A stretch of 64,000 bases of DNA. It comes from Vulcanimicrobiota bacterium. GTDB lineage: Bacteria > Vulcanimicrobiota > Vulcanimicrobiia > Vulcanimicrobiales > Vulcanimicrobiaceae. The translations under genes and the position numbers were made by a program. Shown here one piece after another: positions 1-58,110 of this stretch; within the stretch, counting starts at the first letter, position 1, and every line of letters begins with the position of its first letter. The notes under the pieces were generated by a model. The model saw only the letters and a program-made list of their open reading frames with translations. It ran no database searches and had not been told where the DNA came from. The stretch is from contig CAWETW010000002.1 of assembly GCA_963812155.1 (NCBI GenBank), positions 160,001 to 224,000 of the forward strand, read 5' to 3'.

Positions 1-1145
1 TCTTCCGGTTCGATCTCGCCGAGGAGTCTAAGAAACTTGGCGAGCGGATGGGCTTCAAGCCGGAGGTTCCCGCCGGCGTATTCGGAGCCTACACGGTTAA
101 CAGCATTCGCGCGATTCGGTTGAACGCCGACGGAATGGCCGGACGAACCGTCGGGCACGTCGAGGACGGTTTCGAGCAGCGTGGCCAACGCGTTTTCGTC
201 GCGGCGTTTAGACGGGACGATCGGATTACGACCGCTTCCCGAAGTGACGTGCTGCGAGAAGGCGACGTCATTGCGCTGGCGGGGCCGTCTGAAACCGTGA
301 TTCCGGAAGCCTCCGGAAAGGAAGTGCACGACCCGACACTGCTCGACATACCGCTTGCGCAGCTCGACGTGGTCGTTACAAATCCAGCCTTGGCCGGCCG
401 TACCGTGGAAGAGATTATGACTGGGCGGGCGCGGGGAGTCGTGCTCAAAAAGATTACCCGCAGTACGCTCGACGTTCCGGTTCTTCCGCGCACGGTGTTC
501 GAACGGGGTGACACGTTACAGATCGCCGGCTTTCAAGCCAGCGTCGAAGCGGCCGCCAAGGTAATCGGCTACCCGTTGCGGCCATCGGCTTCCGCGGACG
601 TCGTCTTCGTCGCTACCGCGATCGTCATCGGCGTATTGGTCGGGTCGCTTAGCATCGTCGTCGGCGGCATTCCAATCGGCTTAGGCGGCAGCGTCGGCGC
701 TCTGGTCGCAGGGCTTGTCGGCGGCTATTTGCGCGCGAGATACCCGACCTTCGGCAACATATCGCCGGGCGCGCAGTGGGCGTTTGACTCGTTTGCGCTC
801 ACCGTCTTCGTCGCCGTCGTCGGCATTCAGGCCGGTCCGGGCTTCATCGCCGGCATTCAATCCGTCGGCTTGCCGCTCGTCGCCGGCGGCGTTCTGATAC
901 CCCTCGTTTCGTTGCTGATCGCGGCCGTCTTTGGGAAGTACGCACTGCGGCTCAACAACGTGATACTCTGCGGCGCGCTCGCGGGAGCGGACACCTCGAC
1001 CGCCTCGTTCGGTGCCGTTCAAGATGTTGCCAAGAGCAATCTCGTCACCCTCGGATACACGATAACCTACGCCATCGGCAACGTCTTGTTGACGGTTTGG
1101 GGCACGGTGATCGTCGCAATTTTTGCTCGCAGGACCGCCATTTAA
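1..1145 (+). CDS. aspT: Aspartate:alanine antiporter AspT/YidE family (5'-truncated by window edge)
   Basis: Frame open from base 3. TrkA_C-like cytoplasmic repeats, then a hydrophobic C-terminus ending GYTITYAIGNVLLTVWG typical of AspT; directly upstream of aspD. Confidence 0.88.
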   Translation, partial: FRFDLAEESKKLGERMGFKPEVPAGVFGAYTVNSIRAIRLNADGMAGRTVGHVEDGFEQRGQRVFVAAFRRDDRITTASRSDVLREGDVIALAGPSETVIPEASGKEVHDPTLLDIPLAQLDVVVTNPALAGRTVEEIMTGRARGVVLKKITRSTLDVPVLPRTVFERGDTLQIAGFQASVEAAAKVIGYPLRPSASADVVFVATAIVIGVLVGSLSIVVGGIPIGLGGSVGALVAGLVGGYLRARYPTFGNISPGAQWAFDSFALTVFVAVVGIQAGPGFIAGIQSVGLPLVAGGVLIPLVSLLIAAVFGKYALRLNNVILCGALAGADTSTASFGAVQDVAKSNLVTLGYTITYAIGNVLLTVWGTVIVAIFARRTAI

Positions 1146-1157
1146 GGAGTAACCGTC

Positions 1158-2786
1158 ATGGCCACCCAATCGACCGAATCCGATCCTCTCGAACGCTTTC
1201 GCAGGTTTGAGACGCTCAGCCCCTTCGAACTCAAAGACGATCTGATCAAACTTGCAAAGGATCCGGAGAGCGTTCACGTGTTCCTCGATGCGGGGCGCGG
1301 CAATCCAAACTGGATCGCCACGACGCCGCGCGAGGCATACTTTCTCTTTGGACGGTTCGGCATCGAAGAGTCGAAGCGGGTTTGGGACGAGCCCGGCCTC
1401 GGAGGAATGCCCAAGAAAGACGGGATCGGCGCGCGATTCGACGACTTCGTGAAGCGGAACGCGAGCGAGCCGGGCGCGGCCGCGCTCAAAACGAGCGTCG
1501 AGTACGGCGTGCAGAAACTGGGCTTCGACAAGGACGCATGGCTCCACGAACTCGCGGATGCGATCATCGGCGACATGTATCCGGTACCCATGCGCATGGG
1601 CCGCCACATGGAGCAGGTCGTGCGCGCATACCTCGTTCGCGAGATGTGCGGCGACTCGCCGCCTCCAGGCACGTACGACGTCTTTGCGGTCGAAGGCGGA
1701 ACCGCAGCCATGTGCTACATCTTCGACTCGCTGATGGTCAACGGTCTGCTCAAGCGCGGAGACCGAATAGCATTGGCGGTGCCGACCTTCACGCCGTATC
1801 TCGAGATCGCGCATCTCGACAAGTACGCGTTTGAAACCGTGGAAATCGACGCGAGCGGCACGTACGACTCCGGCGCGCATTCGTGGCAATATCCCGACGC
1901 CGAGATCGACAAGCTGCTCGACCCCAAGATCAAGGCCTTCTTCGTAGTCAACCCGAGCAACCCGCCGTCGTACGCACTACAGCGCTCGACGCTCGAGCGC
2001 ATCGCGAGGATCGTGCGCGAGCAACGCAAAGACCTCATCATCATCACCGACGACGTCTATGGCACGTTCGTCGAGGGCTTCGAGTCTCTCATGAAATACG
2101 CGCCCCGCAACACGATCACGGTCTACTCCTACTCGAAATACTTCGGTTGCACCGGCTGGCGTCTCGGCGTCATCGCAATCCATCAAGACAACGTCTTCGA
2201 AGAAATGATCGCAGCGCTGCCCGAGCCGGAGAGGGTCCGCCTACGCAAGCGGTACAGCCCGCTCACGCTCACGCCCGACACGATCAAGTTCATCGACCGC
2301 CTCGTCGCCGACAGCCGTCAAGTCGCACTGAATCATACCGCCGGACTCTCGATGCCGCAGCAGGTGATGATGACCTTCTTCTCGCTCTCGGCCCTCACCG
2401 ACTCGAAGAACGCCTACCGCGACCTCACGCGCCTTATTTGCAAGCGGCGCATGGAACTGCTTTGGAAGGGGTTGAATCTGCCGCTCGTTCCCGACGCGAA
2501 TCGGGCGGACTACTACTCGACCTTGGACCTCATGAAGTGGGCCGAACTCACGTATGGCGATAAATTCATGAAGTTCCTCGTCGACAACTACCACCCGCTG
2601 CAGATCGTTTTTGCGCTGGCGACCTTCCATTCGATCGTGTTGCTCAACGGCAGCGGCTTTGGAGCCCCGGATTGGTCGGTACGCGTCTCGCTGGCAAATC
2701 TACCCGACGAGGCATATGGCGAGATCGGTGCCGATCTCTCCAACGTCGCGCAGACTGCGCTCGAGCGGTGGAAGAGCCAAGGATGA
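1158..2786 (+). CDS. aspD: Aspartate 4(beta)-decarboxylase, PLP-dependent
   Basis: LSPFELKD, DAGRGNPNW, EGGTAAMCY, NPSNP, TDDVY, SYSKYFGCTGWRLG, ALNHTAGLS motifs; SD AAGGAG. Confidence 0.95.
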   Translation: MATQSTESDPLERFRRFETLSPFELKDDLIKLAKDPESVHVFLDAGRGNPNWIATTPREAYFLFGRFGIEESKRVWDEPGLGGMPKKDGIGARFDDFVKRNASEPGAAALKTSVEYGVQKLGFDKDAWLHELADAIIGDMYPVPMRMGRHMEQVVRAYLVREMCGDSPPPGTYDVFAVEGGTAAMCYIFDSLMVNGLLKRGDRIALAVPTFTPYLEIAHLDKYAFETVEIDASGTYDSGAHSWQYPDAEIDKLLDPKIKAFFVVNPSNPPSYALQRSTLERIARIVREQRKDLIIITDDVYGTFVEGFESLMKYAPRNTITVYSYSKYFGCTGWRLGVIAIHQDNVFEEMIAALPEPERVRLRKRYSPLTLTPDTIKFIDRLVADSRQVALNHTAGLSMPQQVMMTFFSLSALTDSKNAYRDLTRLICKRRMELLWKGLNLPLVPDANRADYYSTLDLMKWAELTYGDKFMKFLVDNYHPLQIVFALATFHSIVLLNGSGFGAPDWSVRVSLANLPDEAYGEIGADLSNVAQTALERWKSQG

Positions 2787-3949
2787 TTCGCGTTTTCGCC
2801 GCGGGCCTTCTGCTCGGAGTTTGCGTCGTAACCGCCGGCTGCGGCCACGGCAATGAGGCGAACGAAGCAAACGTCGCGCCCCCGCCGCCGACCGTGGTCG
2901 TGCAGACCGTTCGCCGCGAAACCGTGCCCATCGCCGAAGACTACGAAGGCACCTTCGGATCGGTCGAGAGCGTGGAGATTCGCGCGCGAGTCGAGGGAAC
3001 GCTGGACCGCGCGCCGTTCAAAGAAGGCGACCTCGTGCGTAGAGGCGATCTCGTTTTCGAGATCCAGCAGAACGAGTATATCGCCGCGCTTCGAGCGGCA
3101 CAGGCTCAACGCGCACAAGCGCGCGGGAATCTGTTCGCACGCCAGGCCGCACTCGCACGTGCGAACACGACGGTCGCGCGAAACCGGCCACTTGCCGCCG
3201 ACAGAGCGATACCGCAAAAAGACCTCGACAATGCGATTCAAAACGCCGAAATCGCGAAGGGCGACGTTCTGGTCGCACAGGCCCAGATTGCGTCGGCGCA
3301 GGCTGCCGTCGACAACGCGCAGATCAATCTCGGCTACACGACGATCTACGCGCCGGTGACCGGCTTGATCGGATTCCTCAACTACGACGTCGGCAACGTC
3401 GTCGGCGGACAGGGTACGCAAGTGCTCGACACGATAAACTCGATCGATCCCATCAAAGTCAACTTCGCGTTGGACGAGCCGACGTACTTGGCCTTGTCGC
3501 GCAACCGGACTGACCCCAACGTCAGCGGGCTGAGATCTCAAGAGTTGAGAATCATCTTGGCAAACGACCAGAGCTACGCTTACCCAGGAACGATTTACGC
3601 TTTTAGTCCCACGGTCGACCCGAAGACGGGGACGATCAACGTCGAAGCGAGGTTCCCCAATCCCGAGGGTCTCCTTCGCCCGGGCGGTTTTGCTCGGGTG
3701 CGCGTCGTCGTCGAAAACCGGCGCGATGCGTTGCTCGTACCCCAAACGGCAATCACGAAGTCGCAAGGCGTCGATACGGTCTATGTCGTCAACTCGAAGA
3801 ACGAAGTCGTACTTCGGTCGGTCACACTCGGCACTCAATATAAGCAGTCGTTCGTCGTGAATTCCGGGATCAATTCCGGAGATCGCGTCATCGTCGAGGG
3901 TACGCAGAAAGTGCAACCCGGTGTGAAAGTCACCGTAAAGGGAAAATAG
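2783..3949 (+). CDS. RND efflux periplasmic adaptor (MFP) lipoprotein
   Basis: ATG overlaps aspD stop (ATGA); lipobox TAGC; VEIRARVEG and NLGYTTIYAPVTG motifs. Confidence 0.92.
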   Translation: MIRVFAAGLLLGVCVVTAGCGHGNEANEANVAPPPPTVVVQTVRRETVPIAEDYEGTFGSVESVEIRARVEGTLDRAPFKEGDLVRRGDLVFEIQQNEYIAALRAAQAQRAQARGNLFARQAALARANTTVARNRPLAADRAIPQKDLDNAIQNAEIAKGDVLVAQAQIASAQAAVDNAQINLGYTTIYAPVTGLIGFLNYDVGNVVGGQGTQVLDTINSIDPIKVNFALDEPTYLALSRNRTDPNVSGLRSQELRIILANDQSYAYPGTIYAFSPTVDPKTGTINVEARFPNPEGLLRPGGFARVRVVVENRRDALLVPQTAITKSQGVDTVYVVNSKNEVVLRSVTLGTQYKQSFVVNSGINSGDRVIVEGTQKVQPGVKVTVKGK

Positions 3950-3951
3950 CG

Positions 3952-6900
3952 GTGGCACACTTCTTCATAACCCGGCCGATCTTCGCGATCGTCCTATCCA
4001 TCGTGATCGTCATACTGGGGGGCGTCGCGATCCTCGTGCTTCCGGTGGCGCAATTCCCGCCGATCTCGCCGCCCCTCATTCAAGTGCAAACGACCTACAT
4101 CGGTGCGAGCGCTTCGGTCGTGGAGCAATCGGTCGCGTCGGAGATCGAGAACGAGGTCGTCGGCGTCGACAACCTGATTTACATGCAGTCGACCAGCTCG
4201 TCGAGCGGTCAGTATACGCTCAACTGCACGTTCAAAGTCGGTGCGGACATTCAAAAGGCGCTGATCGACGTGCAAAACCGCGTCGGGCAAGCCACCGGAA
4301 AGCTACCCGAATCGGTCAATCGGTTCGGGATCACGGTTCAAAAGAAATCGCCCCAGATCTTGATGGTGCTTGCGCTCTACTCACCAACCAATTCGTACGA
4401 CCGCCTCTTTCTCAGCAACTACATGACGCTCAATCTGATCAACCCGCTGCTCTCCGTTCCGGGCATCGGCGGCGAGAACACCATCGGGGATCAAGACTAC
4501 GCGATGCGCGCCTGGGTGCGCCCCGACCGATTGGCCAAATTTGGTTTGCAAGCGAGCGACCTTGCCGACGCGGTCAGCAAGCAGAACGTGCTGATTCCGA
4601 CGGGTGCCGTCGGCGCGCTGCCGGCTCCGAAGAACAATCAATTCCAACTTTCCGTCAACGCGCAAGGCCGGCTCGTCGATCCCAAGCAGTTCGGAAACGT
4701 CGTCGTCCGCTCCAATCCGGATGGATCGATCTTGCGCTTGCGCGACGTTGCGAGAGTCGAACTGGGCGCACAACTTTATCAGACGCTCGGATCGCTCAAC
4801 GGGCGACCCGCTACCCTCGTAATTCTGTATCAAACTCCCGATGCTAACGCGCTGACGACCGTAAAAGCGATCCGGACGAAAATGGAGGACCTCTCCAAAG
4901 CGTTTCCGCCGAGCTTGAAGTATGCGATCGCCTACGACAGTACGCTCTTCGTCAAGGATTCCATCAAAGACGTCATCAAGACGCTTTTCGAAGCGATCGC
5001 GCTCGTCATCATCGTCGTTTTCATCTTCTTGGGCAGTTTCCGATCTTCGTTCATTCCGATGCTGGCCGTTCCGGTTTCGCTCATCGGAACGTTCATCGCA
5101 TTCCTTCCACTCGGGTTTAGCGTCAACACGCTGACGCTTTTTGGGTTGGTGCTCGCAATCGGCATCGTCGTCGACGATGCGATCGTCGTGGTGGAGGGCG
5201 CCGAGCATCACATCGAAGCGGGGCTCGAGCCGTTGGCAGCCGTCGAAAGGGCGATGAAAGAACTCACCGCGCCGATCCTCGGCATCTCGCTCGTTCTCAC
5301 GTCGGTTTTCTTGCCGTCGGCCTTCATTAGCGGCATCACGGGCCAGCTCTATCGGCAGTTCGCGCTCACCATCACGATTTCGGTCAATCTTTCGGCGATC
5401 GTCGCGCTCACGCTGACGCCGGCACTCTGCGCGATCATTCTTCGCAAGCGAACGCGCATGTGGGGACCTCTTGGATGGTTCATCGACCACTTCAACAACA
5501 TTTTTGGAGCGGTAACGAAGGGCTACATGGGGCTGCTAAACTGGCTCATGCGCCGGGTAATTCTGGTCATTGGATTGCTTGCCGCATTCTACGTGCTCGT
5601 CGCACTGCTCGGCATGAAGCTGCCGGGCGGCTTCGTGCCGGATGAGGATCAAGGCGTCGTCTACGCTTTGGCGCAGCTTCCCTACGGCTCATCGTTGGAT
5701 CGTAACGCCGCAGTCGTCGCTAAGATGGAAAACGATTTGAAGTCGGTTCACGGCGTTGCCGACGTCATCTCGCTTGCCGGTTATAATTTGCTGACGTTCA
5801 TTCAGTCGCCGGACACGTCGAGTTTCATCGTCGTGCTGCATCCTTGGGAGGAACGAACCAAAGAGCACCTGACGCTGCACGATATCGTTGCCCAAATCGG
5901 CCAGAAGATGAACGCCTATCCCCAAGCAGCGTCGTTCACGTTCGTGCCGCCGACGATCCCGGGACTTGGGAACGCGTCGGGCTTCGCCTTCGAGCTACAA
6001 GACACCGGCGGTCACACGGTCGACCAGCTCGCCACCGTTGCGGACAAGGTCGTCGCCGAAGCGCGCAAGCGGCCGGAGCTTACGGCGATCAACAATACGA
6101 TGCGAACTTCGGTCCCGCAGCTCCAGCTCGACGTCAATCGCGACAACGCTGCCACGAGAGGCGTGGCGGTGAGCGACGTTTTCAAGCAGCTGCAGGCGTG
6201 GCTCGGCGGCATGGTCGTTGACGAGTTTACCTACTTCAATCGAACGTGGGACGTGATGATTCAAGCGGAGCCGCAGTATCGTGCGACTCAAAATAGCATC
6301 TCGTCGATTTACGTTCGCAATAACACCGGTCAAATGGTGCCGCTGCGAGCGGTATCGACGGTACGCCGCGGCCTCGGCGCCGATTTCATTCAGCGCTTCA
6401 ACACGAACCGCGAGATCGAGATATTCGGCGCGAATTCCGCGGGGTATAGCACGGGACAGGCAATCGCCGCGATGACCGAGGTCGCGAAAAAGACCGTACC
6501 GGCCGGTTACACGTACGGTTGGTCCGGCACGGCCTACCAAGAAGTCGCCGTCGGCAATACGCAAAACATCATCTTCGCGTTTTCGGTACTGCTCGTCTTC
6601 TTGTCGCTCGCGGCGCAGTATGAAAGCTGGGTGATGCCGCTGGCCGTTCTCCTCGCGGTCCCGACCGGCATCTTCGGCGCGTTTCTTTCGGTGCTCTTGT
6701 GGCGGCTCGATAACAACGTCTACGTGCAAATCGGCATGATTTTGGTGATCGGACTCGCGGCGAAGAACGCCGTGCTGATCGTCGAGTTCGCGCGCGAGCG
6801 GCGCGCCCACGGCGCCTCGATTGCGGAGGCGGCGAGGGACGCGGCTCGCCTGCGCTTCCGGCCGATCCTCATGACGTCATTCGCGTTCATCATCGGCGTC

Positions 6901-7116
6901 ATTCCGTTGATGTTTGCGCACGGTGCCGGCGCGGCATCGAGACACTCGCTAGGCTCGACCGTCTTTGCCGGCATGCTCGCGGCAACGTGTTTCGGCATTT
7001 TCTTCACGCCGTCTCTCTACGAGCTCTTCCAGCGGTTCGCCGAGCGCAAGAAAACCAAGACCAAATCCGACGTGTCGGCGGAAGCCGCGATTCCCCCGAG
7101 CGAAGAACCGGCATGA
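3952..7116 (+). CDS. RND efflux permease (AcrB/HAE1 family)
   Basis: FFITRPIFA start, GIVVDDAIVVVE, GLAAKNAVLIVEFA, RFRPILMTS; 1054 aa. Confidence 0.96.
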   Translation: MAHFFITRPIFAIVLSIVIVILGGVAILVLPVAQFPPISPPLIQVQTTYIGASASVVEQSVASEIENEVVGVDNLIYMQSTSSSSGQYTLNCTFKVGADIQKALIDVQNRVGQATGKLPESVNRFGITVQKKSPQILMVLALYSPTNSYDRLFLSNYMTLNLINPLLSVPGIGGENTIGDQDYAMRAWVRPDRLAKFGLQASDLADAVSKQNVLIPTGAVGALPAPKNNQFQLSVNAQGRLVDPKQFGNVVVRSNPDGSILRLRDVARVELGAQLYQTLGSLNGRPATLVILYQTPDANALTTVKAIRTKMEDLSKAFPPSLKYAIAYDSTLFVKDSIKDVIKTLFEAIALVIIVVFIFLGSFRSSFIPMLAVPVSLIGTFIAFLPLGFSVNTLTLFGLVLAIGIVVDDAIVVVEGAEHHIEAGLEPLAAVERAMKELTAPILGISLVLTSVFLPSAFISGITGQLYRQFALTITISVNLSAIVALTLTPALCAIILRKRTRMWGPLGWFIDHFNNIFGAVTKGYMGLLNWLMRRVILVIGLLAAFYVLVALLGMKLPGGFVPDEDQGVVYALAQLPYGSSLDRNAAVVAKMENDLKSVHGVADVISLAGYNLLTFIQSPDTSSFIVVLHPWEERTKEHLTLHDIVAQIGQKMNAYPQAASFTFVPPTIPGLGNASGFAFELQDTGGHTVDQLATVADKVVAEARKRPELTAINNTMRTSVPQLQLDVNRDNAATRGVAVSDVFKQLQAWLGGMVVDEFTYFNRTWDVMIQAEPQYRATQNSISSIYVRNNTGQMVPLRAVSTVRRGLGADFIQRFNTNREIEIFGANSAGYSTGQAIAAMTEVAKKTVPAGYTYGWSGTAYQEVAVGNTQNIIFAFSVLLVFLSLAAQYESWVMPLAVLLAVPTGIFGAFLSVLLWRLDNNVYVQIGMILVIGLAAKNAVLIVEFARERRAHGASIAEAARDAARLRFRPILMTSFAFIIGVIPLMFAHGAGAASRHSLGSTVFAGMLAATCFGIFFTPSLYELFQRFAERKKTKTKSDVSAEAAIPPSEEPA

Positions 7117-8549
7117 AATTCGTCGTCGCGCTGATCGCGCTCGTTCAGCTCATCGCATCGTGCGTTCCGCCGACACCGTCGGCCCCGCCGAACGCAGAGA
7201 TGCCGCAGGTGTATCGCGGCGAAGCATCCACGGCTTCGTCGCTGGGCGATCTCCCTTGGCGCAAGTTGTACGAAGACCCGGTGCTGCAGGGACTCATCGA
7301 GAAGGCCCTGGCACGCAACTTCGACGTGGAAATCGCCTACGCGTCGATCCTCGAAGCCGAGGCAACCCTCGGAATCACCGCTGCGAATCAGTCCGTGTTC
7401 GTCAACGGAAATGTCCAGGCACCCTATCAGGCAACGGCCGGTGGGAAACCACCCGGCACTCCCAACTCCGAGTTCTATCCGCAGCTGGGAATCGGGGCGA
7501 GCTATCAGGTCGACCTTTTCGGCAAACTCGCGTCGGCGACGGGCGCTGCGCGCAACCGGCTTCTCTCCACCGATGCAGCAAAAAACACCGTTCTCGCGAC
7601 GGTCGTGGCGCAGGTCGCAAGCGACTATTTTCAGCTGCTCGAACTCGACGACGTTTTGAAGCTCACCCAACGAGCGATACCCGTGCGGCAGGAAAACGTG
7701 CGCCTCATGAAGCTGCGCGTTGAAGGCGGCGAATCCTCGGCGCAAGATTTGAGACAAGCCGAGCAATCGCTCTACGAAGTCACGCAGAACGAACCGACGA
7801 TTCGGCAAAACATCGCAAAAACCGAGAACGCTCTCGCCGTGTTGACCGGCGATTATCCGCACGACATCCAGCGGGGCTTGCCGTTGGAGAAACAGGTGCC
7901 GATGCCGGCGGTTCCGCAAACGGGCGTGACCAGCGAACTACTGCAGCGCCGTCCGGATATCGTTCAGGCCGAATATGCGATCGCCGCGGCGGCCGGCGAC
8001 GTCGACGTCGCGCGCAAGCTGCTCTATCCGTCGCTGACGCTCGGCGCCTCCGCCGCGGCGGCGGGGAGCGTCGTTCACGGCCAATACGCCAACGAGCCGC
8101 CGGCGCTCGAACCGCTGTCGGCCATCAATGGGGTTTTCTACGGGCCGTTCGGTCTCTTTTCGATCGTCGCGCAGCTCCTCCAGCCGATCTTCAACGGCGG
8201 CCAGATCAAATCGCAAATTCACCTGGCGCAGGCGCAACAGCAGCAAATCACGGTCTCGTATCTGCAAACGGTCCACCGCGCTTTCGAAGAAGTCTCCGAC
8301 GACGTCGTTTCCTATAACGAGTCCCGGCTGCGCACCGGACAACTCAAGCTCTATGAGGGTGCTTCTCTCGACTCCGTACGGCTCGCGAACGAGCGCTATG
8401 AAAATGGCTACACCTCGTACCTCGAGGTGCTCGATGCGCAGACGCGCGCCTATCAGGCACAAACCGACGTTGCAGCAGGGCAGCTGAACGAACGTTTGGC
8501 GCTCGTACAGCTCTATCTCGCCCTCGGCGGCGGCTGGCAAACGCAATGA
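7113..8549 (+). CDS. Outer membrane efflux lipoprotein (OprM/NodT family)
   Basis: ATGA overlap with RND stop; lipobox [29 protein letters not shown]. Confidence 0.93.
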
Positions 8550-8577
8550 CACAACTCACGCAACGACAGAGGTGCAC

Positions 8578-10284
8578 ATGGACTGGCTCGTAGCGACTCT
8601 CAAGCAATATCCGGAGATCGCGCTCTTCTTATCGCTCGGCATCGGTTACTGGGTCGGCGGCAAGAGTTTCAAGGGATTCAGCCTCGGCGCCGTCACGGCG
8701 ACGCTGCTTGCCGCGATCGCACTCGGGCAGCTCGGCATCAAGATCTCCGGCGACGTCAAATCCACGTTCTTCCTGATCTTCCTCTTTGCGATCGGTTACG
8801 GCGTCGGACCGCAGTTCATCAGAGGCATCACGAAGGACGGCATTCCGCAAGCGGTCTACGCTGCGATCGTCTGCGTATTCTGTCTGGGCGCATGCGTCAT
8901 CGTTGGGAAAGCCGCAGGTTACGATGCCGGAGCCGCGGCGGGCCTTTTTGCGGGATCTCAAACGATTTCGGCGTCGATGGGGCTGGCGACCGATGCGATC
9001 AACCGGCTCGCGCTCACGCCCGATAAGACGAAGGCGATGCTCGATATCATGCCGACGGCCTATGCCGTCACGTACATTTTCGGCACGGTTGGATCCGCCA
9101 TCGTCATCGCGATGCTCGGACCGATTCTGCTGCGCATCAATCCTCGCAAGGCCTGCAAGGAGTACGAGGCGTTGCATGGCGGCAAACGCGAGTTCGGCGG
9201 CCTCGGCGACGCGTGGCAGGCGTACGACGTGCGCGCTTTCTTGATTGCACCCGACGCGCAAGTCGTCGGCAAGACGGTGAGCGAGACCGAAGCGCTGCTC
9301 ACGGAGGCGACGAAGGCGCTGGGGAACCAGATGTACGTCTTGGCAGTGCGTCGAGGCGGAACGATCTCCGAAGCGACGAGCGACCTCGTTTTGCAGGCCG
9401 GAGACGTCGTATCCGTCGTCGGAGAACGAGATCAGGTGATCGCGCTGCTCGGCTACGCCAGCAAAGAGGTCGACGATCCCGAGCTGATCTCCGCGCCGAT
9501 CGAGGGCGTCGACGTCTACGTCACCAGCAAAGAGGCTGACGGAAAGACGTTGGCAGAACTTGGGGGCCTTCCGGGCGCGCGCGGTGTCTACGTCCGGCGA
9601 ATCAAACGCGGATTTACCGAGACGCCGATTCCCGTGCTCGGCGATACCAAGCTCTATCGAGGCGACGTCGTGACGTTGGTCGGGCGCACGCAGGACACGG
9701 CCGTCGCGGCCGCGGCACTGGGTGTCGTCGATCGCGCCACCGACGTCACCGATGTGGCGTTCATCGGCATCGCGATCACGATCGGCGCGCTGATCGGGGC
9801 GGTCGTCCTGAAAATCGGCGGGGTTCCGATTACGCTCTCGACGGCCGGCGGTGCGCTGATCTTAGGCATCGTCGCAGGATGGTACCGCGCGGTCCGCCCG
9901 ACCTTCGGCCGCATTCCGACGCCGACGTTGTGGTTCATGAACTCCGTCGGCCTCAACATGTTCATCGCGGTCATCGGTCTCACCGCCGGCCCCAAATTCG
10001 TCGCGGGTCTGCAGCAGCTGGGCTTCGGCCTCTTCTTGTGGGGCGTCGTCGCGACGACCGTGCCGCTGATCCTTGGCATGTATCTCGCAAAATACGTCTT
10101 CCGCTTCCACGACGCCATTACGCTCGGCGCGATTTCCGGAGCAAGAACGACGACGGCCTCGCTCGGGATGGTCTGCGACGCCGCGCAAAGCCAGGTCCCC
10201 GGACTCGGCTACACCGTTACCTATGCGGTCGGCAATACGCTACTCACGATTTGGGGCATGTTCATGGTCATGCTCGTGAAATGA
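8578..10284 (+). CDS. aspT: Second AspT/YidE-family antiporter
   Basis: [26 protein letters not shown], two TrkA_C-like domains, [17 protein letters not shown]. Confidence 0.88.
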
Positions 10285-10334
10285 CCGTGCGCAATTCATT
10301 TCTGCATCTAGTTCTGGTCATGCTGGGACGTTGA
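10281..10334 (+). CDS. Possible 17-aa hydrophobic micro-ORF ([17 protein letters not shown])
   Basis: ATG overlaps aspT stop (ATGA); stop lies 1 nt before the decarboxylase ATG. Confidence 0.3.
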
Positions 10335-10335
10335 C

Positions 10336-13071
10336 ATGAGCAATCTGGAAAAAAACAAAAAAGGCCGGCGGGTAGACGTCTTCTTCGCAACCCCGGGAGC
10401 TCGAGAAGATCGTTGGCGCGATGTCGTCGATGCCGCCAAGAAGTGGGCTGCTGGGACCGGCAGCCGCGCGGAGTTCGAGTCGGCACTGAGCGAAGCAGCC
10501 GTGATCGAAGAGTTTCACGGCTATCCTGGGCCGAGCCTGATGGCGGCGCTACGCGATCGTGCCGAGAGCGATGATTCCACGGGGGCTTCCGCGCTCGCAT
10601 GGCGGATCGCTTCGGCGTTGCTCACGCGCTCGTTTAGGCAGCATGCGTCGGATTGGGATCCGCATGCTGATATCTCGAGCACCGTCCCCGACGTATTGCC
10701 GCCGACGCTAGGGCGGCCCGCGGCCGCGCCTCCGTATTTCGAAGTTCTCATCGTCACGGGAGCGCCGATCGAACGATGGGCGTCGATCGCGGCGGAGTGG
10801 CGCCGGCTGCGCCGTCCTCAAGACGAGTTCGTCTACGAGCCGGTCGTCGTCGGCACCGCCGAGGATGCAGTCTGCGCAACAATGTTGAACGCGGACCTCG
10901 CGGCCGTGGTGATCCACGAGGGTTTTGGATATCGCTCGCGACACGACGCCCCGGTCTTGCGCGGCATCGTCGATCCCGTCGCGAAGGAAGAGCTTTCGGA
11001 CGGATCCGCGCTACGCTTGGCGCGGGTCATTCATCAGGCGCGACCCGAGCTCGATCTCTACCTGCTTTCGGATCGACGCGTCGAGGAGATCGCCGGCGAT
11101 CCGGCAGCCGACATCGTGCGGCGCGTCTTCTACGCCGTCGAGGAGCTGCTCGAACTGCACCTGGCGATACTCGAAGGCGTTGCCGCGCGCTATGAGACGC
11201 CGTTCTTCGATAACTTGAAGAAGTATGCGGAACGCCCGATCACGACGTTTCACGCTCTCCCGATCGCCCGCGGCGCGTCGATTTTCAAGTCGGACTGGAT
11301 CCGGGACATGGGCGAGTTTTACGGCCCGAACCTGTTCCTCGCCGAGAGCAGCGCAACGACCGGCGGTCTCGACAGCATGCTCGAGCCGACGGGCACCATC
11401 AAGCGCGCTCAAGAGATGACGGCTCGCGCGTTCGGCGCCGAGCGCGTATTCTTCGTCACCAACGGGACATCGACCAGCAACAAGATGGTCGTGCAGGCGT
11501 TGCTGTCGCCCGGCGACATCGCGATCGTCGACCGTAACTGCCACAAGTCCCATCACTACGGGATGGTGCTAGCCGGAGCGCAGCCGCTGTACGTCGAGGC
11601 CTTCCCTCTGACCGATTACTCGATGTACGGCGCGGTGCCGCTGCGCACGATTAAACAGGCGCTCCTTACGGCAAAACGCGAGGGGCGGCTCGATCGCGTC
11701 AAGATGGTCGATCTAACCAACTGCACGTTTGACGGCCACATCTACAACACGCGCCAAGTTATGGAAGAGTGTCTGGCGATCAAACCGGACTTGATCTTCC
11801 TGTGGGACGAGGCGTGGTTCGGGTTCGCGCGCTGGTCGCCGTTCCTGCGCCCGCGCACGGGGATGGGCGCCGCAGCCGACATCGAGGAGTGGCTGCGCGA
11901 CCCGGCGAGCGTCGCCGCCTACGAGCGACAGCTCGCCGAGTTGGGGAAGGATCCGTCCGACGAAAAACTGCTCGATACGCGGCTGCTGCCGGATCCCCGC
12001 AAAGTACGGCTTCGCGTCTACCAGACCAACTCCACGCACAAGTCGATGTCGGCGTTGCGGCAAGGGTCGATGATCCTGGTGAAGGACGTGGAGTATCACA
12101 CCGTCGAGCAACAGTTCAAGGAAGCCGTGTTCACGCACGCTTCCACCAGTCCCAACCAGCAGCTGATCGCCAGCCTCGACGTTGCGCGGCGCCAGATGGA
12201 ACTCGAAGGCTTCGGCCTCGTCGCCAATGCGATCGAGATAGCGATGGCGATTCGCCGAGAGGTGAATCGGCATCCGCTGATTTCCAAGTACTTTCGTGTC
12301 GTCGGAGCGGAAGGGATGGTTCCTGCGGAGTACCGCCGGAGCGGCTTCACCGACTTCCTCGCAGCGGATTCGGACTGGGCCAAGATGCGCACGAGCATGC
12401 GGGACGACGAGTTCTGCCTCGATCCTACGCGGATGACGCTCGTTTGCGGCACGTCCGGCTACGACGGAACTCAGTTCAAGAATCTGCTGGCAAACGAGTA
12501 CAACATCCAGCTCAACAAGACGTCGCGCAACAGCGTCTTGCTGCAGTCGAACATCAACAACACGCGCAGCGACGTGGCGCACTTGATCCGGGTCCTCGTC
12601 CAGATAAGCCGTGAGATTGAAGAACGGCTCGCGTCCGGCGGCGAAGGCGAACGTACCGAGTTTGCGGCCCGCGTAAAAAGCTTGATGACGGACGTCCCGG
12701 ATCTGCCGAACTTCAGCTACTTTCACGAAGCGTTTCGACACGATGCGGGGGCCGGGACCAACGAAGGCGACATCCGAACCGGATTCTACGCCGCCTACGA
12801 TGTCGAAGGATGCGACCACATTCCGCTGCACGATAAGGAGATCGATCGCCGCTTGAAGGACGGGCCGCCGCTCGTATCGGCGAATTTCGTCATCCCGTAT
12901 CCGCCCGGCTTCCCGATCATGGTACCAGGCCAAGTCATCACGGCGGACACGATCGACTTCATGCGCAAGCTGGATGTGAAGGAGATTCACGGCTACAATG
13001 CGGCGCAGGGGTTGAAGCTCATTAGCTCCGCCGCGTTGGCGAAGCTCGACCGTCGTAAGGCGCACCGTTAG
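10336..13071 (+). CDS. Large PLP-dependent Orn/Lys/Arg-family amino acid decarboxylase
   Basis: FVTNGTSTSNK, DRNCHKSHH, TNCTFDG, WDEAW, STHKS (PLP Lys), STSPN, PYPPGFP; long N-terminal extension. Confidence 0.9.
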   Translation: MSNLEKNKKGRRVDVFFATPGAREDRWRDVVDAAKKWAAGTGSRAEFESALSEAAVIEEFHGYPGPSLMAALRDRAESDDSTGASALAWRIASALLTRSFRQHASDWDPHADISSTVPDVLPPTLGRPAAAPPYFEVLIVTGAPIERWASIAAEWRRLRRPQDEFVYEPVVVGTAEDAVCATMLNADLAAVVIHEGFGYRSRHDAPVLRGIVDPVAKEELSDGSALRLARVIHQARPELDLYLLSDRRVEEIAGDPAADIVRRVFYAVEELLELHLAILEGVAARYETPFFDNLKKYAERPITTFHALPIARGASIFKSDWIRDMGEFYGPNLFLAESSATTGGLDSMLEPTGTIKRAQEMTARAFGAERVFFVTNGTSTSNKMVVQALLSPGDIAIVDRNCHKSHHYGMVLAGAQPLYVEAFPLTDYSMYGAVPLRTIKQALLTAKREGRLDRVKMVDLTNCTFDGHIYNTRQVMEECLAIKPDLIFLWDEAWFGFARWSPFLRPRTGMGAAADIEEWLRDPASVAAYERQLAELGKDPSDEKLLDTRLLPDPRKVRLRVYQTNSTHKSMSALRQGSMILVKDVEYHTVEQQFKEAVFTHASTSPNQQLIASLDVARRQMELEGFGLVANAIEIAMAIRREVNRHPLISKYFRVVGAEGMVPAEYRRSGFTDFLAADSDWAKMRTSMRDDEFCLDPTRMTLVCGTSGYDGTQFKNLLANEYNIQLNKTSRNSVLLQSNINNTRSDVAHLIRVLVQISREIEERLASGGEGERTEFAARVKSLMTDVPDLPNFSYFHEAFRHDAGAGTNEGDIRTGFYAAYDVEGCDHIPLHDKEIDRRLKDGPPLVSANFVIPYPPGFPIMVPGQVITADTIDFMRKLDVKEIHGYNAAQGLKLISSAALAKLDRRKAHR

Positions 13072-13182
13072 GCGCAACGTGGCGCCTGAAAAGGAAGAGC
13101 TGGTCATGTCCTGATCTCTGCGACGTCATCTCAAATCGAGTACCACCGAATCTAACCGTCCTCCATGAAAGAAGGATCACGA

Positions 13183-13854
13183 ATGCAACGCTTGGCTATT
13201 TCGCTCTGCTGTGGACTCGCGCTCTTTGCGACGTCGGCGACGGCCGGCTTGGCCCAGCCCAACGTCTCGGGAACGTGGACGATTCAGCAGTCCGGATTGA
13301 ACGGCACTTCGACTTCGACCGTTACGCTGCACCAATCCGGCAACGGCATCGTCGGAACCAACGCCTCAAACGGAAACGGGTTCACGGGGGAGTTCGCCAC
13401 CAACGACCGGATCGACGCAAAGTGGCACGGTCCCGGCGGCGCGGGTTGGCTGACCGTCTACGTGACCGCAAACGGCCACAGCTTTAACGGCACGTGGGGC
13501 TATAACGGACGTCCTGCCAACGGCTCTTTTGTCGGAAACAAAGTTCTACCGCCGTCGCCGATCTCGGCGGCGGGCACCTGGCACGTTACCGGCGCGGGCG
13601 GTCAGACGAAATTCGTCGGAACGATGAAGTGTACGCAGTCGGGTCCAACCGTCGTCTGCCACGCCACCGATGTCACGTTCAACGGCAAGTTCGTCGCCAA
13701 GGACAAGGTCCGGGCAACGTGGACCGGCGGGGCCAAGTCGGGCTGGTTCTCGTTTTGGTTCAACGGCGACAACAATAGCTTCAATGGTATCTGGGGCAAC
13801 GGAACCGATATGAGTTCGGCGGTCGGCCGCGTCGTGGGTCAACGCTCGCTCTGA
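13183..13854 (+). CDS. Secreted protein with two ~95-aa Gly/Trp-rich beta repeats
   Basis: Signal peptide; repeated GxW...QSG...W-x4-GxGW...SFxGxWG; paralog at 57127. Confidence 0.8.
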   Translation: MQRLAISLCCGLALFATSATAGLAQPNVSGTWTIQQSGLNGTSTSTVTLHQSGNGIVGTNASNGNGFTGEFATNDRIDAKWHGPGGAGWLTVYVTANGHSFNGTWGYNGRPANGSFVGNKVLPPSPISAAGTWHVTGAGGQTKFVGTMKCTQSGPTVVCHATDVTFNGKFVAKDKVRATWTGGAKSGWFSFWFNGDNNSFNGIWGNGTDMSSAVGRVVGQRSL

Positions 13855-13902
13855 GTCCGAGCCACGGCTCGCCCGAGCTTGCATCGCGCGTGACGTAACG
13901 CA

Positions 13903-14703
13903 ATGGTCGATATTCTCGATCCAATTCCGACGTGGGCGCTCATGCTCGTATCGGTGCTCTTGATCCTCGCCGCAAACGAGGTTGGTTTCCGTCTTGGCCG
14001 AGGCAAGGGGCCGGGACTCGGCGCTCAGGATCCCGCCGCAATCGTGCAGGGAGCAGCGTTCACGGTTTTGGCGCTGCTTCTAGGGTTTTCGTTCGCACTC
14101 GCCCTTGGCCGGTATGACGCTCGGCGCGGCGCTCTCATGCGAGAGGCCAATGCCATCACTACGACGTGGCTGCGGTCGCAACTCCTCGATCCAGCGGACG
14201 CGCGGGCCGTGGGCGCCGATCTTCGCATCTACGTTGCGCAACGCATTGCATTTGCGCGAGCCGAGGCCGACCCCATTCTACGGGCAACCGCCGACGAGAA
14301 GTCGAGGGCGATCCAGCGCAAGCTTTGGCTAGCGACGCTGCAAATCGCGCATCGCGACCCGCATTCCACCATCGTGCCGCTCTTCATCGCGGCGCTCAAC
14401 GATGCCATCAATCTGAGCACCGAGGAACGCGCCGTCCTCACCACTCACATTCCGGACGTCGTAACGATCGGACTGCTATTAATCGCCTTCATCGCAGCGG
14501 CAATGATGGGCTATCGCTTGGGGCGCCAAGGGGAGCGTGCGACGATCTTCAAGGCGTGCTATGCCGTCATGCTGGCCATCACGCTCGGTTTGGTTCTCGA
14601 TTTGGACCGCCCGCAGCGCGGCCTGATCCGAGTCAATCTGACGCCGTTGCAGACCGTCCAAGGCGCCATCGAGGGAACGGCCGCGCAGCCCACTCCACCG
14701 TAA
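13903..14703 (+). CDS. DUF4239-like (bestrophin-like) membrane protein
   Basis: LLLGFSF...RYDARR...EANAI and LDLDRPQRGLIRV motifs; about 4 TM segments. Confidence 0.75.
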   Translation: MVDILDPIPTWALMLVSVLLILAANEVGFRLGRGKGPGLGAQDPAAIVQGAAFTVLALLLGFSFALALGRYDARRGALMREANAITTTWLRSQLLDPADARAVGADLRIYVAQRIAFARAEADPILRATADEKSRAIQRKLWLATLQIAHRDPHSTIVPLFIAALNDAINLSTEERAVLTTHIPDVVTIGLLLIAFIAAAMMGYRLGRQGERATIFKACYAVMLAITLGLVLDLDRPQRGLIRVNLTPLQTVQGAIEGTAAQPTPP

Positions 14704-14723: not shown

Positions 14724-14798
14724 TGGTGGGCCTGGTAGGATTCGAACCTACGCGCAACCAGTTATGAGCCGGCCGCTCTACCGCTGAGCTACAGGCCC
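14724..14798 (-). tRNA. tRNA with CAT anticodon, most likely tRNA-Ile2 (lysidine); encoded CCA
   Basis: 75-nt cloverleaf GGGCCTG TAGCTCAGCGGTAGAGC GGCCGG CTCATAA CTGGT..GTAGGTTCGAATCCTAC CAGGCCC ACCA. Paired G1-C72 and no GGG/CCC anticodon stem, so not an initiator; the Ile2 versus elongator Met call is less certain. Confidence 0.92.
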
Positions 14799-15787: not shown

Positions 15788-16294
15788 GTGCCGGAATTTC
15801 GTTCGCTCTTTGAAACGCCCATCGGCACAATCGAGCTTGCCGTGAATGACGAGTGCTCGCTGACCGAGATTCTGCTCCCTAATCGCGGCCCATTCGCGCC
15901 CTCGCCGCAGCCGTCGTCGCCGGCGGCAGCGCGAACGATGCGTGTGGTGAAACGGCAACTCGAAGAATACTTTACGGGCAGGCGAACGATTTTCGATCTG
16001 CCGCTGCAGTTTTCCGGGTCGCCGTTCGAACGCCGCGTGTGGACGACGCTGCTCGAAATACCGTTCGGCGTTACGACATCGTACGGTGCGATCGCAACGG
16101 AGCTCGGTCTGATCAACGGGGCGCGCGCCGTAGGCCGCGCCAATGGTGCGAATCCCATACCCATCGTGATCCCATGCCATCGCGTGATCGGATCGGATGG
16201 TCGTCTGACCGGCTACGGAGGCGGCTTGCCCCTGAAACGCGCGTTGCTCGAACTCGAAGGAGCGCTCGCATCGCCGGAACTGCCTTTGCTTTAG
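15788..16294 (+). CDS. ogt: Methylated-DNA--protein-cysteine methyltransferase
   Basis: ARAVGRANGANPIPIVIPCHRVIG, GYGGGL. Confidence 0.95.
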   Translation: MPEFRSLFETPIGTIELAVNDECSLTEILLPNRGPFAPSPQPSSPAAARTMRVVKRQLEEYFTGRRTIFDLPLQFSGSPFERRVWTTLLEIPFGVTTSYGAIATELGLINGARAVGRANGANPIPIVIPCHRVIGSDGRLTGYGGGLPLKRALLELEGALASPELPLL

Positions 16295-16328
16295 ATTCGC
16301 AAGGCGGTACGTTCGCGCTTAGGCGGCC

Positions 16329-17993
16329 TTAGTGCGCCAGCACTTGGTGCACGAAGGAGATGGCGATGGAGCCTTCGCCGACCGCCGAAGCGACGCGTTT
16401 GACGCTGCCGCCGCGAACGTCCCCCACTGCAAACACCGCCGGCAAACTCGTTTCGAGCAGAAACGGCGGCCGCGCAAGCTTCCATCCAGCGGCGGACAAG
16501 TCGTCGGCGTTCAGCTCGGGACCGGTCTTGACGAAGCCCTTTTCATCCAACGTCAGACAGCCGTCGAGCCAGGCGCTGTTCGGCTCGGCACCGGTCATGA
16601 GAAATACGTGGGGGATGTTGCGTTCCTCGGTTGCACCGGTTTGATTGTTGCGCCAGCGAACGCGCTCGAGCCGATCGCTGCCCAGCAGCTCAACGACTTC
16701 CGTATGCGTAAGGAGTTCGATGTTCGGCGTCAGCTCGATGCGTCGGCTGAGGTAGCGCGACATGCTTTGCGCGAGACCGTTCGACCGCACCAGCAGGTAA
16801 ACGCGCTTGGCGGTCGCGGCCAGAAACACCGCGGCCTGCCCGGCTGAATTGCCGCCCCCGACGATGACCACCTCGTCGCCGGCGCAGAGTTGCGATTCGA
16901 CGAACGTCGCGCCGTAGTAGACGCCTCTGCCTTCAAACTGCTCGAGGTTTTCCAACGCGGGTTTGCGATACTGCACGCCGCTCGCGATCACGATCGAACG
17001 TGCCCGAATCTCGCCGCCGCTTTCCAGCTGCACGCGATACGGATGGCGTTCGCAGTGCAAGCGCAACGCGCGGTCGATCAACACTTGCGCACCGAATCGT
17101 TCCGCTTGGGTGTAGGCCCGCCCCGCCAGTTCCTGTCCGGAAACGCCGGCGGGGAAGCCGAGATAGTTTTCGATGCGCGACGTCGACCCGGCTTGCCCGC
17201 CCGGCGCATTGGTCTCGATCACGAGCACGTCGAGCCCCTCGGACGCGCCATAGACTGCGGCCGCAAGTCCCGACGGGCCGGCACCGATGACGACGACGTC
17301 GCGAACGTGCCTCCGATCGATCGACTCGTTGAAGCCCAAACACTCGGCCACCTCGCGGTTTGACGGGTTTCGCAAAACGTTTTTTCCCCGGCAAATGACG
17401 ACCGGTATCTCGTGCGCGGCGACGTGGAACCCACGCATCAGCTGCTCGACTTCCACATCGCCCTCGAGGTCCATATACGCGTACGGATGGCCGTTGCGCA
17501 TGAGAAACTCTTTGAGCCGCCAAGTGTCTGCGGAATGCGCGGATCCGACTAAGACGACGTCGCCGATGCCGGCGGTGACGAAGGCAACGCGCCGAAGGAT
17601 GAACGCGCGCATCACGAGCTCGCCGATTTCCGCATCGGTTTGTACGAGCGCCATCATCGTCTTCCGGTCGAGCTCGACGAGCTCGCCGTCCGTGGCGGCC
17701 TGGATACGGAACATCGCACGCCGGCCTGAGAGCGTGTTGATCTCACCGTTGAACTGGCCGCGCCCCTTTAATGTGACGATTCGTTTCTCGAGATCCGTCG
17801 GACGCACCGCTTCGAGTTCGCCGGAGAGGATGACGAAAAACGGCAACGCCGCGTCCCCTTGCTCGATGAGTACTTCACCGGCGGTGACGCGGCGTCGCGT
17901 GCCATGGCTATCCAGCCTCGCGATTTGCGCCTCGGAAAGCGTCGGGAAGATGTCTTCCCGCGCAGCGAGGAGGGGAAGCTCCGAACTGCTCAT
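16329..17993 (-). CDS. cNMP-binding domain fused to thioredoxin-reductase-like FAD oxidoreductase
   Basis: N-terminal cNMP fold; GAGPSG, IENYLGFP, GGGNSAGQAA, FAVGDVR. Confidence 0.9.
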   Translation of the reverse strand: MSSSELPLLAAREDIFPTLSEAQIARLDSHGTRRRVTAGEVLIEQGDAALPFFVILSGELEAVRPTDLEKRIVTLKGRGQFNGEINTLSGRRAMFRIQAATDGELVELDRKTMMALVQTDAEIGELVMRAFILRRVAFVTAGIGDVVLVGSAHSADTWRLKEFLMRNGHPYAYMDLEGDVEVEQLMRGFHVAAHEIPVVICRGKNVLRNPSNREVAECLGFNESIDRRHVRDVVVIGAGPSGLAAAVYGASEGLDVLVIETNAPGGQAGSTSRIENYLGFPAGVSGQELAGRAYTQAERFGAQVLIDRALRLHCERHPYRVQLESGGEIRARSIVIASGVQYRKPALENLEQFEGRGVYYGATFVESQLCAGDEVVIVGGGNSAGQAAVFLAATAKRVYLLVRSNGLAQSMSRYLSRRIELTPNIELLTHTEVVELLGSDRLERVRWRNNQTGATEERNIPHVFLMTGAEPNSAWLDGCLTLDEKGFVKTGPELNADDLSAAGWKLARPPFLLETSLPAVFAVGDVRGGSVKRVASAVGEGSIAISFVHQVLAH

Positions 17994-18023
17994 TTTTCGG
18001 CGCTTTGCCGCGCAGGCTCGATG

Positions 18024-20234
<2,211 letters not shown>

Positions 20235-56900: not shown

Positions 56901-57126
56901 AGTCATGAAGTAAAGAGTCCTTCACGCGGCGAGTTCTCTGGAAACCGTTAGATCGCCGGAGAAGCGGGCGCTTTGTCGCCGCTGCAGGCCTATTTCCTCT
57001 TCTCGGGCAGGCGTCGGCGTAAGTCCCCAACACTAGGGAACAATGTCCGCGGAAGCGTGCGGCCGACTCCCGAGCCGGAGGGCCCGCTTTTGCACATTCT
57101 TGCGGCAGCGATTTGGAGGTGCAGTC

Positions 57127-58110
57127 ATGATCAAGCGCTTTGTCGCTCTTCTCGGAATCACGATTCTTGTAGGCTCTCTGCGTACCGGCGCATTGGCGCA
57201 GAACGCGATCAATGCGACCGGCAGTTGGAGCATGACGCCCAGCGGTGAGGCGTTGGCGAATGGTCAAGTCAAAGTGCGGCAGGATGGGTCGGCTGTCGTC
57301 GGCACGTACGGACAAAACGGACATTTCGAAGGGAAATTCCAGCCCGGCACCCTGCAGGTGGATGCGAATTGGAACGACTCGCGTGGCACCGGTTGGATGA
57401 CGATCGTCTTTGCAGCCAACGGAAGAAGTTTTTCCGGCCAGTGGGGACGTCCAGGCAGCAGCCCAAGCGGACATTTTGAAGCGGTTCGCTTCGCCTACCC
57501 GAATGTGTCCGGACTCTATTACGTGAACGTTACCGGCGGGACGGAAATGACGTCGCGCCGCGTCAGCCTTCATCAGTTAGGGTTAGATGTCGTCGGCAAT
57601 TTGGGTCCTGGAACTCAACTCGACGGCACCATCGACTCCGACACTTACACGCTGACCGGCAGTTGGAAGGAACCGAACGGAAGCGGCTGGATCAAACTCC
57701 AGTTTGCCGACAACGGCAAGAGTTTTCAGGGCACCTGGGGCCTGGCGCCAGGCGCGGAAGCTGCCGGGCAGATCAGCGGAAGCGTCGCCGACACCGCGCA
57801 GCTCCGCGTCAACGGTCTCTGGGAGATTGCGTCCAGCGGCGGCGCTTTTTCCGGCAACCATTTGAAGCTCGAGCAACAGGGACAGACGGTCACCGGCAAT
57901 TTTAAGGATGGGCACCTGCAAGGAACGCTTACCCGAGGCTCCTCATCGCTGAGTGGCACCTGGAGGGACGCGCACGGCACCGGATACGTCGCCATTAAAT
58001 TCACATTGGACGGCATGCATTTCCAAGGCACCTGGTCGCGGAAAGGCGGGAGCAGCGGAAGCCTCATAGGGAAGCGCGTGACATCCGCAATGCCGGCGTT
58101 GCGCAACTAA
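57127..58110 (+). CDS. Secreted protein with three ~95-aa Gly/Trp-rich beta repeats
   Basis: SD GGAGG; signal ALA; same repeat as 13183-13854. Confidence 0.8.
   Translation: MIKRFVALLGITILVGSLRTGALAQNAINATGSWSMTPSGEALANGQVKVRQDGSAVVGTYGQNGHFEGKFQPGTLQVDANWNDSRGTGWMTIVFAANGRSFSGQWGRPGSSPSGHFEAVRFAYPNVSGLYYVNVTGGTEMTSRRVSLHQLGLDVVGNLGPGTQLDGTIDSDTYTLTGSWKEPNGSGWIKLQFADNGKSFQGTWGLAPGAEAAGQISGSVADTAQLRVNGLWEIASSGGAFSGNHLKLEQQGQTVTGNFKDGHLQGTLTRGSSSLSGTWRDAHGTGYVAIKFTLDGMHFQGTWSRKGGSSGSLIGKRVTSAMPALRN

Follow-up and report, generated by a model that had tools for sequence, protein, structure and literature searches.

The window examined here comprises the 64,000 nucleotides at C2:160001-224000 (C2 being contig CAWETW010000002.1) of a 2.96-Mb, 84% complete genome draft from a soil bacterium of the Vulcanimicrobiota, placed among Candidatus Cybelea. 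Its positions 1..14703 hold a cluster of nine co-oriented forward-strand open reading frames (ORFs), which a sequence-only reading had proposed to be an aspartate-based acid fitness island. All nine genes, of the families then named, are found at that place, in the order aspT1, aspD, RND adaptor, RND pump, outer-membrane factor (OMF), aspT2, a large decarboxylase dependent on pyridoxal phosphate (PLP), a secreted protein and a bestrophin-like membrane protein. The tight spacing of the first seven also holds, with junctions of 12, -4 (ATGA), 2, -4 (ATGA), 28 and 51 nt from aspT1 to the large decarboxylase; the last two junctions measure 111 and 48 nt. Upstream of the window the run gains at least one more co-oriented gene, which encodes a 294-residue β-barrel protein and ends 39 nt before aspT1. 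A scan for promoters and terminators was uninformative, with no promoter-like sites and 23 terminator-like sites, where 15 ± 4 are expected by chance. The gene order is not due to chance, because it recurs in relatives of several genera. The Vulcanimicrobiota are described as diderm and are reported mostly from sites of pH 3-6.5 (10.1101/534180).

Decarboxylases and exchangers

The product of aspD (1158..2786, + strand) scores 773 bits against TIGR03801 (cut-off 435) and matches PDB 2ZY2 with an E-value of 5e-158, the PLP-lysine motif (K327) being aligned. Judging from characterised relatives, it would convert aspartate and one proton to alanine and CO2. The gene occurs in 27 of 401 genomes of the phylum, of which 24, the host included, form a close clade, and the three others carry distant versions (45-52% identical) with no pump nearby.

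The large decarboxylase (10336..13071, + strand, 911 residues) is a long-form enzyme of the Rv2531c type, a subfamily whose members have about 900-950 residues and an extra N-terminal domain. Its residues 51-906 match the Rv2531c structure PDB 9N0O with 742 bits, against 175 for the best lysine or arginine enzyme, and its nearest named relatives (90-95% identical) are Candidatus Cybelea and Eremiobacteraeota records of the family Vulcanimicrobiaceae. A basic amino acid (lysine, ornithine or arginine) decarboxylase was considered and rejected, since the protein lies far closer to Rv2531c and misses all the NCBIfam cut-offs for LdcC, CadA, AdiA, SpeC and SpeF (149-176 bits vs 794-1310). Rv2531c decarboxylates glutamate and not basic amino acids, with H405, K406, R576, T606, R718 and N731 as key residues (PMC13506015) and K570 as the PLP lysine (PMC12329521). 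In the alignment to 9N0O the window enzyme has H403, K404, K569, R575, T604 and N727 at the corresponding positions, and the R576 equivalent is found in 98 of 99 collected homologues. Four genomes of genus g36 have a canonical GadB instead of the long enzyme at this position, with aspT2 before it and the secreted gene after it (TIGR01788 516-522 bits vs cut-off 380 in the three tested; the fourth is split and was grouped by similarity). The proteobacterial genome G442 holds both a GadB-aspT2-aspD and a long enzyme-aspT2-aspD arrangement, and two metagenome loci read aspD-exchanger-porin-GadB. With the key residues kept and GadB filling the same slot in four relatives, the large decarboxylase most likely converts L-glutamate to γ-aminobutyrate (GABA), and the module as a whole most likely serves aspartate and glutamate. 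A system based on aspartate alone, as first proposed, is not supported.

A second, canonical glutamate decarboxylase lies on another contig of the host (L144:7868-9226, TIGR01788 626 bits); a membrane sensor gene adjoins it, and it has no exchanger. Outside the phylum, Castellaniella MT123 lacks gadA/B/C yet produces GABA at low pH, and carries an annotated 'Arg/Lys/Orn decarboxylase' without a matching antiporter (PMC12915299); by analogy, a candidate long-form enzyme would account for this GABA.

An orthologue of the large decarboxylase was found in 1 of 40 relatives (G014, same genus), a tally that counts G036 as a non-carrier; our other claims are independent of G036. When the decarboxylase tree is rooted at its midpoint, the sequences of this lineage fall inside an alphaproteobacterial group with support of 1.0, which suggests that the gene may have been transferred. 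Measured against relatives, the synonymous distance is ~0.2 in the gene of the long enzyme and 0.6-1.3 in the genes beside it, and, judged by this difference along its length, the cluster recombines piecemeal.

The first exchanger gene, aspT1 (1..1145, ORF 3-1145, + strand), is cut by the window edge, so that its 3' two thirds are seen here; the whole protein has 565 residues, with the start 552 nt upstream of the window. AspT1 orthologues pass TIGR03802 (552 bits vs cut-off 547), and the site motifs and hairpins of AspT1 resemble those of Tetragenococcus AspT. Of the 23 genomes that could be scored, 8 have the gene whole or nearly so, 2 have a remnant of it and 13 lack it, so that it is dispensable. 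The constant exchanger of the module is aspT2 (8578..10284, + strand; TIGR03802 632 bits vs cut-off 547), which lies directly 3' of the OMF gene in 19/19 genomes where this is visible and whose clade accompanies aspD in 30 of 31 alphaproteobacterial-type loci. In 29 loci, none with aspD, a different exchanger clade occupies the slot after the decarboxylase. Both clades carry Thr-Ile/Met-Ser in hairpin 1 and Gly-Ala-Arg in hairpin 2 (reference residues from PMC12462496, mapped by alignment). The hairpin 2 arginine was tried as a marker of glutamate partners and rejected, because three aspD-adjacent exchangers (L114-L116) also have it with no glutamate enzyme nearby.

Besides the company that its clade keeps with aspD, one relative, G038, has aspD, the pump and aspT2, and a search there for a glutamate decarboxylase of either type found none. 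AspT2 is therefore most likely an Asp:Ala exchanger, as is its characterised relative AspT, which is electrogenic (PMC9508256). It probably moves glutamate and GABA too, unless GABA is retained inside for the GABA shunt, because it is the sole exchanger in many two-enzyme loci and no GadC was found in the host. A glutamate exporter is said to be among the members of this exchanger family (PMC9527358).

The efflux pump

Between aspD and aspT2 lie three genes of a tripartite pump. The ATG of the adaptor (2783..3949, + strand; TIGR01730) overlaps the aspD stop codon (ATGA), and the adaptor is followed by the HAE1 RND inner-membrane pump (3952..7116, + strand; NF000282 1261 bits vs cut-off 1250) and by an OMF of the NodT/OprM type (7113..8549, + strand; TIGR01845 248 vs cut-off 210), whose start overlaps the RND gene, again by ATGA. 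The proton-relay motifs of the RND protein are intact (D408, D409, K938, R970 and T975, by equivalence to AcrB). Its best solved relatives score 874-915 bits and MdtF 768, the last of 60 RND structures among the matches listed; the adaptor reaches 154 bits against the MdtE cut-off of 738. The pump falls below every named-pump cut-off and is nearer to CmeB and OqxB-type entries than to AcrB or MdtF.

The adjacency of pump and aspD had been predicted to recur in other genomes, and it does. Among the 24 genomes with the close aspD clade, 18 have aspD and the adaptor in line and 3 have the pump divergent just upstream of the pore gene and aspD, an arrangement that reflects rearrangement; the pump thus adjoins aspD in 21/24. 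Two more carry pump and aspT2 together on another contig, and one (G241) has no close pump. The coupling of adaptor to aspD is likewise conserved, with the ATGA overlap kept in 15/15 distinct in-line loci (18 rows, 3 of them duplicates). Ratios of nonsynonymous to synonymous change (adaptor 0.08-0.14, RND 0.07-0.12, OMF 0.09-0.15) indicate that the pump genes are under purifying selection. An adaptor match is present in 33 of 401 genomes, and of the best 24 (at least 66% identical), 20 lie in aspD loci and 4 in unrelated places. The pump is retained while aspT1 is lost (15/23 genomes), while the glutamate enzyme is swapped (4), moved (1) or absent (1), and while the secreted gene is gained and lost among relatives. 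In genus g56 (L127:4681-15178, L128) a 65% identical sister pump stands amid glycine-rich, 151-residue and secreted cargo genes, with no decarboxylase in these two loci.

Outside the lineage, an RND gene accompanies the core in 3 of 67 loci, mostly alphaproteobacterial and at least 20 kb long, and in 11 of 68 more distant metagenome aspD loci (10/30 among loci of 10 kb or more). Several of the latter lie in the same co-oriented run, for example adaptor-RND-OMF-exchanger-pore-aspD or adaptor-RND-OMF-porin-decarboxylase-aspD, and the nine of these RNDs that were placed in a quick tree fall into two further lineages that are 41-47% identical to the host pump. We treat this enrichment as a lead only, because the loci are partly redundant and come without a matched taxon baseline. 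Distant versions add a glutaminase, a type II asparaginase, a DcaP porin and PdxS, and a Rhizobium plasmid version adds an HdeA/HdeB chaperone. Glutaminase, asparaginase and HdeA/HdeB-type genes are usual companions of acid-resistance systems.

The plasmid of Rhizobium sp. T136, a cultured and tractable carrier of the core, holds at L241:15601-28166 a single run of genes for an AI-2E transporter, carbonic anhydrase, the long decarboxylase, AspT, AspD, a DUF2092 protein and HdeA/HdeB. In Bradyrhizobium (L022-L083) the long decarboxylase has a conserved set of neighbours: two AAEx clades, PPK2, a Crp-family regulator, a small ion channel, AI-2E, SulP and DUF1275, DUF3300 and DUF2950 proteins.

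Flanking genes and the cargo island

The 294-residue protein encoded upstream of aspT1 has a signal peptide and is a predicted outer-membrane β-barrel. It matched no Pfam or NCBIfam family, and its look-alikes in the Atlas include an outer-membrane family; it is likely an outer-membrane entry pore. The secreted protein at the other end (13183..13854, + strand) is predicted to form two eight-stranded β-barrels in an alignment-based model (mean pLDDT, the predicted local distance difference test, of 88; 48 for a single-sequence model). Residues 1-98 gave generic barrel matches (Z 13), no family stood out among the structure matches and the Atlas gave unnamed clusters only. The protein occurs in 129/401 genomes, and the host has a 68% identical paralogue elsewhere. 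Its all-β fold and lineage-wide occurrence led us to reject an HdeA-like role, and the same distribution does not bear out its place as a part of the system. A 355-residue ORF at 57043-58110 of the window is ~30% identical to it and apparently has more repeats.

The bestrophin-like protein (DUF4239-type; 13903..14703, + strand) has four hydrophobic segments, scores 48 bits with PF14023 and has no solved relative by sequence at E ≤ 0.6. Its gene closes the cluster in 16/24 genomes; 4 of 16 full-length close orthologues (at least 60% identical) belong to genomes that lack aspD, where they lie in this larger island as well, and in G153, from which the whole module is missing, the bestrophin-like gene comes immediately after the pore gene. 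It was found in 0/67 of the mostly alphaproteobacterial and 0/68 of the distant loci. The suggestion that it is the ion shunt of the system is accordingly weak, because the gene persists where the module is missing, and we regard both it and the secreted protein as island cargo. A channel slot near the core is conceivable, since a different channel gene lies near the alphaproteobacterial core in 37 loci and MscS follows aspT2 in G038.

A larger cargo island has this cluster as its right end. The rest of it (L001:8231-19408; 11.8 kb upstream of the window) consists of a frameshifted marC and genes for a 390-residue membrane protein, a flavoprotein disulfide oxidoreductase, two proteins of no known family, a DyP peroxidase, a secreted protein rich in glycine, an MmyB-like regulator and the β-barrel protein. 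This set is reshuffled around the module in relatives and is present without it in G153. A tRNA(CAT) gene (14724..14798, - strand) borders the cluster on the right and is not a conserved neighbour. An island integrated at this tRNA was rejected, as no repeat of the tRNA 3' end was found in the left flank of the cluster, no integrase among the ORFs of the 20 kb upstream and no tRNA beside the homologous loci of the close clade. The GC content of the cluster is 2-4 points below the contig mean, and the low GC continues for 70 kb further. Past the tRNA (15788-20231 of the window) lie stress genes for an O6-methylguanine methyltransferase, a cNMP-binding thioredoxin reductase-like protein and a catalase-peroxidase.

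Interpretation and comparison with known systems

From the pump staying attached in almost all carrier relatives, we draw the reading that the cluster is one acid-defence operon with AspD, a glutamate decarboxylase, an exchanger and a co-made pump, and we give it a probability of about 0.5. In such an operon amino acids would enter through the upstream β-barrel pore, AspD and the predicted glutamate decarboxylase would each consume one cytoplasmic proton per decarboxylation, and AspT2 would swap incoming aspartate for alanine, as its characterised relatives do, and probably glutamate for GABA. The pump, translated from the same mRNA, would draw on the proton gradient to rid the cell of lipophilic weak acids or other amphiphiles, which would enter more easily at low pH, and the decarboxylases would take back up the protons admitted by each pump stroke. 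The glutaminase, asparaginase, PdxS and HdeA/HdeB of distant versions fit acid defence.

A number of observations weigh against this reading. As only 27/401 genomes of this acid-habitat phylum have aspD, the module is not a general acid adaptation. Genome G241, 96% complete, has aspD without either exchanger or a close pump; at L096:170-2508 aspD and the pore gene are kept, and AAEx exchangers are missing. No GadC over cut-off and no match to HdeA/HdeB (PF06411) was found in the 84% of the host genome that the draft covers. One residue of the glutamate site is changed (R718 to K715), and Rv2531c itself was assayed at pH 7.3 with a K0.5 of 509 mM, its shown role being in the GABA shunt; the part of that report consulted shows no acid role for it (PMC13506015). 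Linked pumps of the lineage form one clade (support 1.0 / 99, from a quick tree and FastTree), by which the linkage is one insertion, long retained, and the linkage counts are therefore not independent. Sister pumps (62-75% identical) stand in unrelated contexts without decarboxylases, 64/67 of the mostly alphaproteobacterial loci have no pump, and an HAE1-like pump is absent from 13/13 aspD loci of Pseudomonadota, taken from 12 of 401 random genomes; one of these loci has a 23% match.

An alternative is an energy or carbon module at ordinary pH, in which AspD and AspT2 make proton-motive force as in Tetragenococcus, the long enzyme feeds the GABA shunt and acid survival is incidental, the pump being co-expressed since it spends that force under energy-poor or low-oxygen conditions. 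Electrogenic exchange by AspT (PMC9508256) and the GABA shunt sustained by Rv2531c (PMC13506015) speak for it, as do the PPK2, Crp-family regulator and SulP genes beside Bradyrhizobium-type cores and the way aspT2 tracks aspD more strictly than it does the glutamate enzyme, with G038 as the case in point. We consider it somewhat unlikely in view of the in-place swap with GadB, an acid-activated enzyme type (PMC12329521, in part from general knowledge), and of the glutaminase, asparaginase and HdeA/HdeB company in other versions. The two readings are compatible and not mutually exclusive.

The pump could also be a hitch-hiker, that is, a multidrug pump that landed once in a patchy stress-cargo island and is kept by its own selection with no tie to the decarboxylases. 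Its single clade, the sister pumps that adjoin further cargo genes of this island (G229, G301) or stand in unrelated settings, the many core versions without a pump and the unequal synonymous distances (0.2 vs 0.6-1.3) with their piecemeal recombination would all be expected on this account. We find it improbable, as the ATGA coupling is conserved, the pump remains with aspT2 through rearrangement, the island without decarboxylases is also without this pump in 4/4 genomes, and other RND lineages adjoin the core elsewhere. The position of the pump between aspD and aspT2, with its translational coupling, would in turn suit a dedicated exit through the outer membrane for alanine and GABA or for some by-product of the PLP enzymes. 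HAE1 pumps are generally known to take mainly amphiphilic compounds, the exchanger and the predicted pore would already let small amino acids out, and nothing sets the pump apart within its wider lineage, where 74% identical sisters have no link to decarboxylases, all of which makes such an exit highly improbable.

The finding of GadB in the same slot in two lineages provides genomic support, independent of enzyme work, for long-form 'Orn/Lys/Arg' decarboxylases as glutamate enzymes outside mycobacteria, and AAEx proteins are indicated as the missing glutamate/GABA exchangers in bacteria without GadC. The cluster is also a second, unrelated case of an efflux pump fixed within a decarboxylase cluster, and the coupling of pump and decarboxylase is testable because the operon is compact and natural variants lack single parts. 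On a wider view, soil bacteria would have built decarboxylase and RND islands on three or more separate occasions, and E. coli on one, since proton-consuming decarboxylation and proton-importing efflux couple at low pH. AspT2 would here exchange both Asp for Ala and Glu for GABA, taking the place of GadC as partner of either GadB or the long-form enzyme. This is unlikely in our estimate; if true, it would explain why mdtEF belongs to the Gad island and would establish a glutamate-based acid-resistance system that does without GadC.

The closest known parallel is the E. coli Gad acid fitness island (gadA, mdtEF, hdeAB, gadE/X/W), which shares the clustering of a glutamate decarboxylase with an HAE1 RND pump and the proposed low-pH role. 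The parts here are without shared ancestry with it: a long-form enzyme (a 466-residue GadB in genus g36), AAEx exchangers for GadC, an OqxB/CmeB-side pump with its own OMF, an additional aspartate arm and no Gad regulators seen. The cluster is thus like the E. coli island in outline and not a member of it, having no GadC, MdtEF or HdeA, and was likely assembled independently. The analogy to that island drawn by the sequence-only reading, with different parts, is closer than it had claimed, given that glutamate is the most likely substrate of the second decarboxylase. In E. coli, MdtE gives an advantage only under pH 2 exposure with bile acids, and the membership of MdtEF in the Gad island is called unexplained (10.1101/2020.11.21.392837).

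The AspD/AspT cycle of Tetragenococcus halophilus (PMC12462496) is matched by AspD and AAEx exchangers above the TIGR03801 and TIGR03802 cut-offs, and AspT2 keeps the equivalents of T130, S132, Y167, L431 and T496, but has Ile for Q131 and Gly-Ala-Arg for Gly-Ala-Asp in hairpin 2; the present system differs further in its diderm host, two exchangers, second decarboxylase and pump. Rv2531c (PDB 9N0O/9N0N/9N0P; PMC13506015, PMC12329521) is matched at full length over four domains, with the equivalents of H405, K406, K570, R576, T606 and N731 kept and Lys in place of R718; its described role is a cytoplasmic one in the GABA shunt, whereas the window gene lies in an exchanger operon and is interchangeable with GadB. 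OqxAB, CmeABC and MexEF-OprN resemble the pump in the adaptor-RND-OMF trio, the relay residues and the top structure-sequence matches, while the window pump is below the named-pump cut-offs, has no adjacent regulator and sits inside a metabolic operon. Searches of the open-access literature found no description of this operon. All of its parts belong to known families, and what is new is the embedded, coupled pump, the in-place swap with GadB and the recurrence of other pumps beside the core.

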